DNA of 64,000 nucleotides, taken from Patescibacteria group bacterium (lineage in GTDB: Bacteria > Patescibacteriota > Minisyncoccia > Phycocordibacterales > UBA5272). The translations under genes were made by a program, and so were the position numbers. The stretch is taken from the NCBI GenBank assembly GCA_030916895.1, contig JAUPVR010000001.1, forward strand, positions 1,887 through 65,886. Reading direction: 5' to 3'. The notes under the pieces were generated by a model. The model was not told the DNA's origin. It saw nothing but the letters and a program-made list of their open reading frames with translations, and made no database searches. Position 1 is the first letter of the stretch. Every line of letters starts with the position of its first letter. This document shows positions 3,034 to 60,383 of this stretch, in pieces.

Positions 3034-3900
3034 ATGCATTCATTGACTGATATTGAAGTACGCGCGCTTGAATTGCGTGCGGAAGACATTCGCGAAAGTA
3101 TCATTAAGATGCTTTTAGAAGCAGGAAGTGGTCATACTGCAGGGCCGCTTGGCATGACGGATGTTTTTACGTGTATCTATTTTCGTCTCCTTAATCACAA
3201 TCCTCGCCACCCAAACTGGATACAGCGTGATAGGGTTATTCTTTCTAATGGTCATATTGCTCCAGTTTTGTATGCGACCATGGCACACGCAGGTTATTTT
3301 CCAGTTTCTGAATTAAAGACGCTACGAAAATTCGGCACACGCCTTCAAGGGCATCCGCACCGCACAGCACTTCCTGGTATTGAAACATCTTCAGGTCCTC
3401 TTGGTTGTGGTTTGTCGCAAGCCGTTGGTATGGCACTTATGGATAGATTGGAAGAACATAAACCAGACAGGTATTTCTATTGTATGATGGGAGACGGAGA
3501 AATAAATGAGGGGCAAGTATGGGAGTCACTGCTACTTCTTGGAAAATTTAAATTAAACAAAGTGATTTCTTTCATTGACAGAAACACAATTCAAATTGAT
3601 GGATACACTGAAGATGTTTTACCACTTGAACCACTTAAAGATAAACTCGAAGCATTTAATCTTCATGTAATTGAAATCGATGGTCATGATATGCAAGATA
3701 TCGCACGAGCGGTTTCTACTGCTAAAGCAATTCTTGATAAACCAACAGTTATCATTGCACATACAATTCCAGGTAAGGGAGTGGAAGAATTTGAGGGTGA
3801 CTATAGATGGCACGGTAAAGCACCTAACGAAGAAGAAGCAAAGCAAGCTCTTAAAGAATTAAGGACATTGCGAGGAAAAGTTCTTCACGGTGAAGCATAA
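3034..3900 (+). CDS. transketolase, N-terminal (TPP-binding) subunit
   Basis: GHTAGPLGMTDV and GDGEINEGQVWE motifs; split tkt as seen in small-genome bacteria and archaea. Confidence 0.85.
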   Translation: MHSLTDIEVRALELRAEDIRESIIKMLLEAGSGHTAGPLGMTDVFTCIYFRLLNHNPRHPNWIQRDRVILSNGHIAPVLYATMAHAGYFPVSELKTLRKFGTRLQGHPHRTALPGIETSSGPLGCGLSQAVGMALMDRLEEHKPDRYFYCMMGDGEINEGQVWESLLLLGKFKLNKVISFIDRNTIQIDGYTEDVLPLEPLKDKLEAFNLHVIEIDGHDMQDIARAVSTAKAILDKPTVIIAHTIPGKGVEEFEGDYRWHGKAPNEEEAKQALKELRTLRGKVLHGEA

Positions 3901-27111: not shown

Positions 27112-28242
27112 TTAGCGCCGAAGGGGCTTGTGCCGATTTTTGTAACGCTTCCTATATTCGTGCGAGGCGTGCTTGAATTCTTTGCAGAAATTGAGCGTCC
27201 TCTTATCGGTTTCGGTTGGCGTTACGAGCCGTAGGTAGTGAAGGAACTCTGCAATCATCCCGCGTATCACTTCTGGTGAATCGTTCCACGCAGGTGTTGC
27301 AAGGTAGCTTTTCATCACACCTTCGATACGGTCCCGCTTCCACCTAGGGAAACGAAGAACAGCTTTATCACCCGTATTTTCAATTCCCACCTTGGTGACA
27401 AATACCGTACCATGCTTCACATCAAGAACTCGTGACTTCCGGTGATTAACCGAGAAACCAGCGTCATTGATGAGGCTCCGTATTTCTCGCCGAAGATCGC
27501 TCCCGATAATGATGTCGCGGGAAAAAACCAAATCATCAACATAGCGAGTGTAGGTTATTGTTCGTTCGGTGTTTTCCTTAGACCCTTTTCTTTCACACAG
27601 AGCGCGAAGTTTGCTATCAAGAAAGACTTCGCAGTAAAGGTTAAGGAGACGTGGAGACATCGGTCCACCAATGGCGAGTCCGATGTTATTTGGTCCTGAA
27701 AAAGCAATTCGTACAAACTCTCGCAAGGGTAAGTACAGCTTGTCGGTTGTCATCATTTCCTGTGCAAGAGGATTTGAGGCGAACCAGCGAAGGGAATACC
27801 CAGAATCAAGCTGATACTTTCCGTAGTGAAAGATGAGGACGAGAAGCTTTGTCAGGCGGTCAAGGTCGACACTTGGATATGCGTGCACGAAGTCGGTGAT
27901 GTAGAAAAACCGATGACCTTTGTGCTTTTCAGCATTTACGAAGTGGTTAGATGATGGAACCGACCCCGTGGAAGACGGGAGTTTGCGCAGGGTGTAGGTT
28001 TCCCCGGTCCCATACACTTCACCGATTAGGTTGATTGCTTCATGTAGGTGTCGTTCGAAAACCGCATGAACTCTACGCATCGCCTTGTTCGGGGTGCTAA
28101 TGAGTCTTCGCTTGTCACCCACTTTTTTCCACTCTGTGTGGAATAGGGGCAATGTTTGCAAGTTGCTACCCATGAGTACATGCGGGTCGAAATGAAAAAG
28201 CTCCTCTTTTTGCGAAGGAGCCTTTTTTTGCTTTTTTGCCAT
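27112..28242 (-). CDS. reverse transcriptase, retron-type (stand-alone RT domain, about 376 aa)
   Basis: RT motifs read directly: KKVGDKRRLISTPNKAMRRV (motifs 1/2), ITDFVHAYPSVD (3), LAIGGPMSPRLLNLY (4, QG-x-P-x-SP type), YTRYVDDLVFS (5, compare retron YTRYADDLTFS), VFVTKVGI (VTG-like). SD aaggag sits 6 nt before the MAKKQ start; the 61-codon upstream extension in the ORF track is GC-rich leader, not coding. Confidence 0.85.
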   Translation of the reverse strand: MAKKQKKAPSQKEELFHFDPHVLMGSNLQTLPLFHTEWKKVGDKRRLISTPNKAMRRVHAVFERHLHEAINLIGEVYGTGETYTLRKLPSSTGSVPSSNHFVNAEKHKGHRFFYITDFVHAYPSVDLDRLTKLLVLIFHYGKYQLDSGYSLRWFASNPLAQEMMTTDKLYLPLREFVRIAFSGPNNIGLAIGGPMSPRLLNLYCEVFLDSKLRALCERKGSKENTERTITYTRYVDDLVFSRDIIIGSDLRREIRSLINDAGFSVNHRKSRVLDVKHGTVFVTKVGIENTGDKAVLRFPRWKRDRIEGVMKSYLATPAWNDSPEVIRGMIAEFLHYLRLVTPTETDKRTLNFCKEFKHASHEYRKRYKNRHKPLRR

Positions 28243-28306
28243 CGGAAGCTCCTTTGGTTTATGGGGTGATATTACAAATGAACATTTAAGTATTTCCACT
28301 GCTGGC

Positions 28307-28641
28307 GCTGGGGAGCCATGTAGATGCAGGGCAACACCCGAAGGTGCGTAACCAAAGCAGTGAACCGCGGGCCTGCGGCCGATCTCTCCTCCCGACCGAC
28401 TTCCGGCTGTTCGCGTGAATCGCACATGGCATGAACTTGCGATGACGCAGTCTGCTCGGACAGTGCCGAGGCTTCGCGGGCATAGCTTGCGCTATGAGGG
28501 AGGGCAACCCTCCCTTCCTGTCGCCAGACCTTACATCAAGAGAAAATTCCTCAAGAGAAGGCTTACTACGGCAGGATTTTGCTTAGGCACAACTACTTCT
28601 GTAATGCAGGATCTTGCACCCACAAGGTTTCGCTCCCCAGC
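28307..28641 (-). ncRNA. candidate structured ncRNA upstream of the RT (msr/msd-like or DRT-template-like)
   Basis: About 58-60% GC against a ~38% background; bracketed by 10-nt inverted repeats gctggggagc (28307-28316) and gctccccagc (28632-28641); internal hairpins include gggaggg-caa-ccctccc and a UUCG tetraloop stem; ends about 65 nt upstream of the RT start on the same strand. Confidence 0.45.
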
Positions 28642-33132: not shown

Positions 33133-33207
33133 GCCAATGTAGCTCAGTTGGTAGAGCGCGTCCATGGTAAGGACGAGGTCATCGGTTCAATCCCGATCAT
33201 TGGCTCA
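33133..33207 (+). tRNA. tRNA-Thr (anticodon GGT)
   Basis: Acceptor gccaatg/cattggc, anticodon loop atGGTaa, T-loop ttcaatc. Confidence 0.85.
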
Positions 33208-33258
33208 GAAAAATAAAACAACCCGCCAAGCGGGGTTTTATTTTTCTGAGCCAATGAT
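33196..33258. repeat. about 23-bp inverted repeat including the tRNA-Thr 3' end, enclosing the terminator hairpin
   Basis: atcattggctcagaaaaataaaa ... ttttatttttctgagccaatgat around aacccgc-caa-gcggggtt. Confidence 0.7.
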
Positions 33259-33358
33259 TTCGAAGAGGGTCGGAGAAATGATAGTTTCTCCGCGGAGGAG
33301 AGCAGGGCTTTGCCCGTTGAGAACCGTGGGTTCTCAAAACCGGAGCGAAGCGGAGGTT

Positions 33359-33371
33359 ATCATTGGCTCAG
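33359..33371 (+). repeat. direct copy of the tRNA-Thr 3' end (atcattggctcag)
   Basis: Exact 13-nt repeat of 33196-33208; about 100 nt of hairpin-rich sequence lies between the copies. Confidence 0.65.
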
Positions 33372-33397
33372 TTGACATCCAAAGAAAAAAGTCCCCA

Positions 33398-34087
33398 CTA
33401 CGCAAGCGAGGACTGTTCATTTTTTTCTGATTCGTACAGGGGTCGTGTTTTGAAAATCGTTGAGTCCCAGAAAGAGATTAGATTCCTCAAGTACTCTGGA
33501 AGTTCTTCTTGGCGTACATCGTCGCCGTTGTAGAGACAAAAGTCCGAACGGGCACGTTTCTCATCTACCGACAATTGTGCATCTAGAAGGCCCTGGATTT
33601 CATATCGCGAAAGCGGGTCGTTTCCGTTACGGGAATTATTGAGGAGTCGTTCGACTGTTGTTTCCCGCTTGCACCAGATGCATACCACATGTTTAAACCT
33701 ACCATCGTTCCAACCTGCTTCGTGGAGGATGGCGCTCTCGACGTAAATAAAGCCGTCGTAGTTATTGGTACGCTTCATTATTTCCGACCAAACGATATCA
33801 GCCGTGAATTTCCAGAAGCGCTTCCTCACACTTTCGTCATGGATGATGATGTGGCGAATCATCTTGGTGTTATAGTTGACTTTTCCGCTTGCGGGGTCAT
33901 GTGTGAAGATGTCCGTACCAAGCAGTTCTGCTAGTTTATCGTCATATTTCCCACCGCTCTGATAGAGAAGTTCCTTGGCGATGTCGTCTGCGCGGAACAC
34001 TTTCCTGCCCCATGATTCGACGATTTGGATAAATGTGCTTTTACCGCAACCTAAGGGTCCAGTGAATCCGATAAAGGTTGTGCTCAT
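33398..34087 (-). CDS. coaE: dephospho-CoA kinase
   Basis: IGFTGPLGCGKST P-loop at the N-terminus. Confidence 0.8.
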   Translation of the reverse strand: MSTTFIGFTGPLGCGKSTFIQIVESWGRKVFRADDIAKELLYQSGGKYDDKLAELLGTDIFTHDPASGKVNYNTKMIRHIIIHDESVRKRFWKFTADIVWSEIMKRTNNYDGFIYVESAILHEAGWNDGRFKHVVCIWCKRETTVERLLNNSRNGNDPLSRYEIQGLLDAQLSVDEKRARSDFCLYNGDDVRQEELPEYLRNLISFWDSTIFKTRPLYESEKNEQSSLA

Positions 34088-34189: not shown

Positions 34190-34265
34190 GCCACCTTAGC
34201 TCAGTTGGTAGAGCATTTCACTCGTAACGAAAAGGTCTGCAGTTCGATTCTGCAAGGTGGCTCCA
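34190..34265 (+). tRNA. tRNA-Thr (anticodon CGT), CCA encoded
   Basis: Acceptor gccacct/aggtggc, anticodon loop ctCGTaa, T-loop ttcgatt, 3' tcca. Confidence 0.8.
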
Positions 34266-42767: not shown

Positions 42768-42802
42768 TCTGCATCCGTATGCGGGGGGTATTTATTTTTT
42801 GG
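42768..42802 (+). terminator. intrinsic terminator
   Basis: ctgcat ccgt atgcgg plus T-run. Confidence 0.6.
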
Positions 42803-42820
42803 CTGGGGTACAAGGGCTCG
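42803..42820. repeat. 18-nt copy of the tRNA-Gln 3' end (ctggggtacaagggctcg)
   Basis: Identical to 43010-43027 within the tRNA-Gln gene. Confidence 0.7.
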
Positions 42821-42844
42821 CCTCTCCCGTTGGTCGAGACTTGT

Positions 42845-42877
42845 ATTTTCTACAACCTGAGTACAAGCTAAGAAAAT
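42845..42877. repeat. hairpin repeat copy A (7-bp stem attttct/agaaaat, 19-nt loop containing tgagtaca)
   Basis: Paired by eye; homologous to copy B at 43179-43211. Confidence 0.55.
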
Positions 42878-43009
42878 ATGTCGCCTACGGTTCTCGCCCA
42901 TGCCTTGAAGCAATACAAAAAGGATGACACGAGGCCATCCTTTTTGTTGCAAATATATATGTACTTAATCTTGCTAGATTAAGTATCTTCGTCGCCTGCG
43001 CTCCTCGAG

Positions 43010-43080
43010 CTGGGGTACAAGGGCTCGAACCTCGATTAACAGTTCCAGAAACTGCTGTCCTACCATTAGACGATACCCCA
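43010..43080 (-). tRNA. tRNA-Gln (anticodon CTG)
   Basis: Minus strand: acceptor tggggta/tacccca, anticodon loop ttCTGga, T-loop ttcgagc, discriminator G. Confidence 0.8.
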
Positions 43081-59798: not shown

Positions 59799-60383
59799 AT
59801 GCTTCTTACCAATACTTACTGGGTTTTGCGTCATGCGGAAAGTGATAATAATGTTCTCGGTGTTTCAAATACACACGACTACAACATGTACCGTTTAACA
59901 AAGAAAGGGGTTGAGCAAACAAAATCAGCATACGAATTTTTGAAAGACAAAAAAATTGAACTCATTTTTGTATCACCGTTCTTGCGAACGATTGAAACCG
60001 CATACATTTTGTCTACCCTTGTGGGTGATGGCAAGGTGTATGTAGATGAACGCTTGATTGAACTTAAGGAAAGTCATGATGACGGAACTCCAATTACAGG
60101 CATGACATCACGAAGTGAAAGCATTTTGACAGACGCATGGTGGACAACACGAACAGGCGAGGAAACATTTCGCGACCTATATGCACGCATACGAGCCTTT
60201 CTCATGTATGTAGAAACTACGTATTCGGGGAAAACGGTTCTCGTTGTTACCCACGGTTCTCCGCAGAATATGCTTGAAGCAATCGCACACACGGAAACCG
60301 AAGAAGAGGTGCGACAATTTCTCTACAAACGCTACACAAGCGATAGACCGTTTCGTGGGAATGCTGAACCAATACGAGTTTAG
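59799..60383 (+). CDS. histidine phosphatase (PGM-like) family protein
   Basis: YWVLRHAES catalytic RH motif. Confidence 0.6.
   Translation: MLLTNTYWVLRHAESDNNVLGVSNTHDYNMYRLTKKGVEQTKSAYEFLKDKKIELIFVSPFLRTIETAYILSTLVGDGKVYVDERLIELKESHDDGTPITGMTSRSESILTDAWWTTRTGEETFRDLYARIRAFLMYVETTYSGKTVLVVTHGSPQNMLEAIAHTETEEEVRQFLYKRYTSDRPFRGNAEPIRV

Follow-up and report, generated by a model that had tools for sequence, protein, structure and literature searches.

Transfer RNA (tRNA) genes are targeted by islands and prophages with tyrosine integrases and by cis-mobilizable elements (CIMEs), which insert into the 3' part of the gene and restore it, leave a direct repeat that extends from the T-loop region to beyond the end of the tRNA, accumulate in tandem at the tRNA, and produce sites that are occupied in some relatives and empty in others. 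Integron cassettes with their attC sites and the hairpin attachment site (attP) of CTX-type phages follow another topology, X-body-X'-fold-X: a copy of the target precedes a body, an inverted copy, a structured segment of ~60–140 nucleotides (nt) and a direct copy, structure is conserved above sequence, the stem of the imperfect hairpin imitates the duplex target, and arrays extend at one end. Short non-coding intergenic repeats that form hairpins with compensatory changes, such as REP doublets forming hairpins (REPINs), bacterial interspersed mosaic elements (BIMEs) and the palindrome-associated transposable elements (PATEs) derived from IS200/IS605, are presumably mobilized in trans and often lie at gene 3' ends or terminators. 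Each of these features has a counterpart, observed or presumed, in a small element at positions 33209–33371 of a 64,000-nt stretch of a metagenome-assembled genome of Patescibacteria (Paceibacterota) (contig JAUPVR010000001.1, positions 1,887 to 65,886; hereafter, the window), directly downstream of the gene for tRNA-Thr(GGT). This segment is probably one copy of a family of non-coding, non-autonomous, tRNA-targeting insertion elements whose arms are copies of the local tRNA.

The tRNA-Thr(GGT) gene, at once the target and the anchor of the element, is intact (33133–33206, plus strand, with the 3' end called at 33205 or 33206; ARAGORN, and Rfam RF00005 at 68 bits). Its end falls within a 13-nt segment, X (ATCATTGGCTCAG; first direct repeat, DR1, 33196–33208, plus), which comprises the two final nucleotides of the T stem, the 3' strand of the acceptor, the discriminator and three bases of the trailer. 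Behind it lie a spacer, s (33209–33245), composed of an A-tract, a bidirectional intrinsic terminator hairpin (stem 33220–33226/33231–33237) and a T-tract; X in inverted orientation (X', CTGAGCCAATGAT; 33246–33258, plus); a 97-nt core (33262–33358, plus); and a further direct repeat of the tRNA 3' end, which forms the right boundary (DR2; 33359–33371, plus). The TTCGAA directly after X' (33259–33264) corresponds to a complemented remnant of the T loop. The 13-mer occurs exactly three times in the 64 kb, every time at this locus, and with up to two mismatches allowed there are six occurrences compared with 1.5 expected by chance, a number that none of 100 shuffles reached. An earlier note on this DNA had described the inverted and direct copies, a palindrome with arms of about 23 base pairs (bp) around the terminator, three consecutive internal hairpins and a closing stem. 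All of these stand: both copies are exact, the palindrome, centred on the spacer, has perfect 24-nt arms (33196–33219/33235–33258) that enclose the terminator stem at 33220–33237, the hairpins lie at ~33272–33291 (ggagaaa/tttctcc), 33305–33315 (gggc/gccc) and 33317–33337 (ttgagaacc/ggttctcaa), and X' and X close the element with a 13-bp stem. The locus sequence is identical in seven independent Logan assemblies of the window strain and is therefore not an assembly artefact. The Logan contigs of this strain that carry the neighbouring coaE gene (L005–L011) all stop 150–260 nt beyond it, in the inverted repeat or the tRNA, because the palindrome and the k-mers shared among tRNAs break the assembly.

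X' has two possible partners, DR1 via the terminator or DR2 across the core. For the element closed by the X'/X stem, fold z-scores are −7.2 (minus strand) and −3.2 (plus strand), the latter computed on a slightly shorter piece; when the tRNA end is included in the fold, X' pairs with the tRNA's own 3' end instead of DR2. The acceptor stem and discriminator are present in X'/X (GCCAATGAT/ATCATTGGC, then T), which follows automatically since X' is the complement of X. The spacer has the makings of an intrinsic terminator on both strands, namely a GC-rich hairpin (33220–33237) and a T run, TTTTATTTTT. An open reading frame (ORF) of 88 codons (33164–33430, plus) that spans the 3' half of the tRNA, the terminator and the element is mechanical and unsupported as a gene.

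The 97-nt segment between the arms is a conserved, structured core, which we named class A and of which a covariance model recognizes 13 full copies. These follow genes for tRNA-Thr(GGT), Thr(CGT), Tyr, Ser, Glu and Leu(CAA) in related Paceibacterota contigs. The model (R1) was built from 12 cores over 111 positions, with helices P2, P4 and P5; it recovers its 12 training copies in 652 kb and assigns 68.4 bits (E 3.5e-15) to the core in the window, which alignments and covariation likewise place in class A (subfamily A1). Two copies outside the training set, one in contig L118 and a truncated one in L117, score 99.6 and 30 bits, respectively, while two weak additional matches (L041, in coding DNA, and L026) arise by chance. 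Scanning metagenomes with the class A pattern yielded 19 loci, eight of them true copies behind tRNA-Tyr, Ser(GCT), Glu, Leu(CAA) and Thr; inspection showed the other 11 to be chance matches (L101, L103–L108, L110, L115 and L116 among them). Neither the pattern search nor model R1 found a second class A core within the window. The earlier note would have been refuted by a segment unique to this site and missing in every relative, which the copies in related contigs contradict. A 9–12-mer that the element shares with positions 60234–60261 (GAGAACCGT) lies inside a coding region and is a chance match.

In the window, the core helices map to ~33271–33292 (P2), 33305–33315 (P3) and 33317–33337 (P4), and P5 pairs the AACC at 33338–33341 with the GGTT at 33355–33358. 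Two core helices covary: in an alignment fitted to the model, 96% of the helix cells are paired and 11 of the 21 pairs are altered on both sides (one of them being CG in seven sequences and UA in seven), values that none of 500 shuffles matched, while controls with the partners slid by 1–3 columns were 26–62% paired. The single-stranded parts contain the invariant motifs GA(A/G)RRGGTC, CGNGGAGGA, AAACCG and AGGTT (the unpaired motifs are also given as GAAAGGGGTC, CGTGGNGGA, AAACCG and AGGTT). The last of these had been taken for a remnant of the tRNA-Thr variable arm; it is instead the invariant end of the core, present behind tRNA-Tyr, Ser, Glu and Leu as well. Counts of G-U versus A-C pairs, which bear on the strand of the structure, are nearly equal (3 versus 2).

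Relatives of the window were reached through homologues of CoaE and TrmD (contigs L001, L004, L092/93, L095 and L117–L119), which are 73–76% and 77–81% identical to those of the window, respectively. All true class A copies share one layout: the 3' part of the tRNA (X), a spacer that usually contains a terminator, X', the core, AGGTT(G), and X. The segment X spans the T loop or T stem to the tRNA end plus some trailer, X' ends in ...TCGAAC, the complemented start of the T loop, and the elements measure ~95–210 bp from the start of one direct X copy to the start of the next. Three conserved core classes lie between such direct copies. Class A is the type found at tRNA-Thr(GGT) in the window; class B is that of the tRNA-Gln in the window, and also of tRNA-Lys and tRNA-Leu(TAA) in L001; class C occurs at tRNA-Leu(TAG) in L004, at tRNA-Thr(GGT) and tRNA-Gln in L095, and in L117. 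An attempt to treat the segments downstream of the window's Thr and Gln genes as a single family failed, as they cannot be aligned, and they therefore represent separate core classes. Wherever a core of class A, B or C has sufficient flanking sequence, it lies 0–226 nt behind a co-oriented tRNA; the family exists and is strictly linked to, and co-oriented with, tRNA genes. In the close lineage ~14 of 25 tRNA genes are occupied, with the direct copy 115–185 nt downstream. Distant TrmD loci (at most 65% identity, among the matches listed by a contig scan with TrmD alignment), used as negative controls, had none of 22 tRNAs occupied, apart from matches to the T loop of a neighbouring tRNA. In the data searched, the family is confined to one Paceibacterota (Patescibacteria) lineage.

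Comparison of the copies shows that relationships among the cores ignore the identity of the tRNA, while the arms always match the local one. The core behind tRNA-Thr(GGT) in L093 is 96% identical to that behind tRNA-Tyr in L100, and the core behind tRNA-Thr(CGT) in L093 is 89% identical to that behind tRNA-Leu(CAA) in L114, whereas the two Thr(GGT) copies of the window and L093 agree at only 54%; the nearest relative of the window core is the copy behind tRNA-Glu in L109 (63%). Since near-identical cores carry wholly different arms, the arms must have been swapped in a single step, for which templating on the target would be the simplest route. The arm copies carry the trailer of the gene and not CCA (CAG in the window, CAAAA at tRNA-Thr(CGT) in L093), and would therefore stem from DNA or a precursor transcript rather than from mature tRNA. 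X' is the Watson–Crick complement of X and not a copy of the tRNA 5' strand, as is seen in L100, where it has C opposite G at a position that is U-G in the tRNA; the X-s-X' palindrome in that contig has arms of ~42 nt. Across the family the direct repeats vary from ~8 to ~52 nt (27 nt in L095, and ~52 nt including local trailer in L117).

As the earlier note had proposed, we compared occupied and empty sites among relatives, and both states were found at tRNA-Thr(GGT) and at tRNA-Thr(CGT). The tRNA-Thr(GGT) site holds an A1 element in the window, A2 in L093, an A3-like element in L118 and class C in L095, and is empty in L119 and L012; the tRNA in L119 has the acceptor of the window gene (GCCAATG) followed by a plain terminator only. 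L118 has the gene order of the window (trmD-DUF167-tRNA-element-coaE), while in L093 (10874–11140) the whole unit of tRNA-Thr(GGT) plus element is inverted relative to trmD as compared with the window and L118. The tRNA-Thr(CGT) of the window (34190–34265) has no element, while the identical tRNA in L001 is occupied, as are those of L004 and L093. Arrays grow beside the tRNA: at tRNA-Gln in L117 there are two class C elements, the tRNA-proximal X being an exact copy of 18 nt and the outer one having four mismatches, and at tRNA-Thr(CGT) in the same contig a class C element is nested ahead of a truncated class A element, with the X-s-X' unit (~52 nt) duplicated. Elements also recombine together and sit where the gene order of relatives differs. 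In L098 (1011–1300, minus strand) a class C element is followed by an A2 core with an X' of the Tyr type and an X of the Thr(GGT) type, mixed arms that identify it as a recombinant (chimera) between elements; in L001 and L004, coaE faces tRNA-Leu(TAA) with a class B core and not tRNA-Thr(GGT).

Measured against the described systems, the family departs from each of them. Unlike tyrosine-integrase islands and CIMEs, its copies lack an integrase, are 95–210 bp long instead of kilobases, contain a conserved folded core as well as the target in inverted copy, and use one core for many tRNAs with wholesale exchange of the arms. In contrast to attC and CTX attP sites, the arms are 8–25 nt of tRNA sequence (here CTGAGCCAATGAT/ATCATTGGCTCAG) without RYYYAAC/GTTRRRY or dif-like sites, the loci show neither an integron platform nor IntI, the copies lie behind tRNA genes in every case and not in a cassette array beside intI/attI, the target is a tRNA gene, and a single-stranded intermediate is presumed. 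REPINs, BIMEs and PATEs have fixed ends, no long target duplication and no tie to tRNAs, and no REP-associated tyrosine transposase (RAYT) or TnpA was found for the element in the loci searched. IS200/IS605 elements insert 3' of a fixed 4–5-nt target without duplication, while here the direct copy includes local trailer; MITEs (miniature inverted-repeat transposable elements) share their terminal inverted repeats across the whole family and duplicate a fixed length of target, while here the arms differ with each tRNA and the repeats vary; retron non-coding RNAs have closing inverted repeats and a reverse transcriptase (RT) immediately downstream, while here the nearest RT is 5 kb away and none adjoins any copy. 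As the defining features of integron attC sites, MITEs, IS200/IS605, retrons and tRNA families are thus lacking, the element is a member of none of them. As a miniature, non-autonomous tRNA-targeting element, it is distinguished by the inverted target copy together with a core that swaps arms. Our search of the literature in full text found no description of such elements, and no core has a family in Rfam, which returned only the tRNAs and spurious matches of microRNA hairpins to the palindromes.

Under the insertion-element reading, the element would be selfish and would depend on functions supplied in trans, and its arms would be written from the target upon insertion. X' may arise by fold-back copying through the terminator hairpin, a step that would explain the perfect palindromes, and the joints in the near-palindromic T-loop sequence TTCGAA may reflect template switching or a recombinase specific for the T loop. 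The active form would be single-stranded, X' and X closing the core into a hairpin, a mimic at once of the duplex gene end and of the acceptor/T-stem minihelix. In a tRNA the acceptor and T stems stack as one helix, and the X'/X duplex would therefore stand for the end of the gene in duplex form as well as for the minihelix, the core taking the position of the T loop; the invariant unpaired motifs might then be recognized by a putative trans-acting factor. Taken further, these steps would describe a mobile element of a new kind, able to rewrite the arms by which it is targeted, in which a ~100-nt core moves between tRNA genes and has its arms templated anew each time, an idea that we offer tentatively and consider doubtful as it stands. 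The conserved unpaired motifs would in that case be read by a putative trans-acting enzyme, or the element could use tRNA-processing enzymes directly. For the window strain, an empty site is expected to join the tRNA end to TTGACATCC, and a circle or excision junction to join core-AGGTT-X to AAAAATAAAAC, with the body of the tRNA absent.

If the insertion-element reading is correct, the ultra-small genomes of Patescibacteria, usually regarded as poor in mobile DNA, harbour a class of tRNA-anchored selfish DNA. The family occupies about half of the sampled tRNA genes of this lineage, supplies or doubles terminators behind them, and sits at differences in gene order (the inverted tRNA unit, the junction between coaE and the tRNA, and the chimeric element). 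That arms are exchanged wholesale while the core stays unchanged implies that the principle of targeting is itself copied from the target, a point of interest for the mechanisms of mobile DNA. In practical terms, assemblies from short reads break at tRNAs on account of the palindromes, and partial copies of tRNAs could be scored wrongly as attachment (att) sites of islands.

Several points weigh against the insertion-element reading. No integrase or transposase is present in the gene tables of eight loci (up to 10 kb; whole genomes were not searched), a Pfam scan of 20 unassigned ORFs of the window detected no recombinase, and no free, circular, viral or plasmid-borne copy was seen. Polymorphism within the strain was not seen either, all seven assemblies of the window strain being occupied. 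The sample is small (13 class A cores, and fewer for classes B and C), many of the sequences are related, and the pair counts come from an alignment fitted to the model. Moreover, the unpaired conserved motifs and covarying helices fit a functional RNA equally well, and at tRNA-Thr(CGT) in L093 and in L095 the terminator follows X instead of preceding the element, so that co-transcription with the tRNA is possible.

The last two points lead to the alternative that survives best, although we judge it unlikely: X'-core-X would be a functional non-coding RNA, transcribed with the tRNA or by read-through, that forms a tRNA top-half minihelix whose T loop is exchanged for the core and acts in tRNA processing, charging or regulation, selection keeping the arms cognate. 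The duplex of X' and X does reproduce the 7-bp acceptor stem, runs on into the T stem and ends in the discriminator, a likeness shared with tRNA top-half mimics such as the tRNA-like domain of transfer-messenger RNA (tmRNA), the tRNA-like 3' ends of viruses and minihelices. Covarying helices and invariant motifs outside them are found in the core, whose orientation is always that of the tRNA; the terminators of the L093 Thr(CGT) and L095 copies are placed to include it, and at tRNA-Gln in L095 a joint change seems to have carried X' and X away from the sequence of the tRNA (CGGCAG/CTGCCG). The distribution is harder to accommodate: the element is patchy among close relatives with the same tRNA (the L119 and window Thr(CGT) sites are empty), three unrelated core classes share one position, and in the tandem array at tRNA-Gln of L117 the older copy has an uncompensated X'/X mismatch. 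Most copies, including that of the window, have a strong terminator between the tRNA and X', no promoter-like site was found at the element, and X', if transcribed, prefers to pair with the tRNA's own 3' end. Compared with known mimics, the T loop is replaced by a core of 70–115 nt, the D-loop partner is absent, and transcription, CCA addition and charging would be hypothetical. The suggestion that the element is a degenerate tRNA, or a tmRNA, is not supported: ARAGORN calls only the four real tRNAs of the window and none at the element, and Rfam at E ≤ 10 gives no match of the tRNA clan on 33246–33371, just as it holds no family for the core.

Improbable, in our estimation, is a retro-element resembling a short interspersed nuclear element (SINE), in which an X'-core-X RNA would be copied by a host RT (for instance the retron-type RT at 27112–28242) and the complementary DNA installed at a tRNA gene. 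Such an RT family, with a conserved upstream RNA of its own, does lie 5 kb away and also occurs in L093, and snap-back synthesis and template switching, to which reverse transcriptases are prone, would produce X' and retarget the arms. The element copies, however, carry trailer bases and not CCA, the RT is missing at the syntenic spot in the element-bearing contigs L117 and L118, it has a dedicated RNA, and model R1 finds no match near it. The tRNA-like NCCA end that might have linked this RNA to tRNAs fails in two of its four homologues.

About as improbable is the view that the locus is the scar of a tRNA-integrating island or prophage, its attL and attR brought close together by deletion of integrase and cargo, with the ~100 nt as a remnant of an attP arm. 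The earlier note had leaned towards such an att-site scar, and its first half stands: the empty sites (L119, and tRNA-Thr(CGT) in the window) indicate an att-like duplication that came with inserted DNA, the direct repeats run from the T loop or T stem past the tRNA end, as with integrases that cross over in the T-loop region of the tRNA, and accretion beside the tRNA fits as well. Its second half, an integrase-bearing island, does not stand, as what lies between the repeats is a module conserved and covarying in its own right, none of the ~25 copies has a gene between the repeats, and their lengths keep to the narrow range given above. One core is found behind at least six different tRNAs with fully different arms, the att sites of such islands do not feature the target in inverted orientation, and the viral contigs and phage records searched are free of the cores: matches of the class A, B and C patterns to viral contigs (1, 0 and 10, respectively) were all chance matches in coding DNA, and in a BLAST comparison with phage records the query was matched in its tRNA-Tyr part alone. 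Finally, a purely local by-product without family or mobility, in which quasi-palindrome correction extended the terminator palindrome and a duplication occurred by chance, could yield the perfect 24-nt palindrome centred on the terminator loop by template switching, but has next to no chance of being right given a 97-nt core with covariation that is common to 13 loci behind different tRNAs.

The window contains a second unit of the wider phenomenon, of class B (42802–43080, minus strand). Here tRNA-Gln(CTG) (43080–43009) is followed by a spacer that contains two hairpins and a terminator, a partial inverted copy of the T arm, the core (GGCGACATATTTTCTTA-hairpin-...GGGAGAGG; ~42895–42821) and, ~190 nt downstream, a 19-nt direct copy of the 3' part of the tRNA (CGAGCCCTTGTACCCCAGC; 42820–42802). 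By eye, this core is 92% identical to that behind tRNA-Lys in L001. The 6-bp hairpin of class B covaries over four loci (AGCTTG/CAAGCT, AGCTTG/CAGGTT, AAACTG/CAGTTT and AGGCCG/CGGCCT).

The right flank of the Thr(GGT) element holds the terminator of the convergent coaE gene (33390–33414, minus strand), which is original flank outside the element, and coaE itself (33398–34087, minus; Pfam PF01121). In the window, coaE lies on the opposite strand between the two tRNA-Thr genes, which are ~1 kb apart; in L117 (10916–11067) tRNA-Thr(GGT) and tRNA-Thr(CGT) are separated by 2 nt. In L004 (5700–5930, minus strand) an intact tRNA-Thr(CGT) with acceptor GCCAGAG lies directly upstream of a disrupted, older tRNA-Thr(CGT) with an acceptor of the GCCACCT type, whose 3' half is intact, whose anticodon region is replaced and whose 5' end is chimeric. 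A tRNA gene has therefore been replaced at this site, and the older one still bears its class A element.

The retron-type RT of the window (27112–28242, minus strand) matches Pfam RVT_1 and the PADLOC retron model 'RT_outgroup' (1e-16), and scores far under the NCBIfam cut-offs. Upstream of it lies a GC-rich, RNA-like region of ~340 nt (28303–28641, minus). Its 10-bp closing stem shows covariation among four homologues, an internal motif (GGGAGGGTTGCCCTCCCTCATAGCGCAAGCTATG) is conserved, and Rfam gives no match to it. A tRNA-like stem-N-CCA end, considered for this RNA, was rejected, CCA being present in the window and L093 and absent in L130 and L131. In L131, a Minisyncoccota contig, the DNA just upstream of the RT-linked RNA contains a palindrome built of a T-arm-like sequence and its complement (GTTCGAATCCCTTCG ... 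CGAAGGGATTCGAAC; 3495–3548), at which ARAGORN finds no tRNA. At E ≤ 1e-20 the RT family numbers at least 144 members, and the few with a named source come from Patescibacteria lineages.

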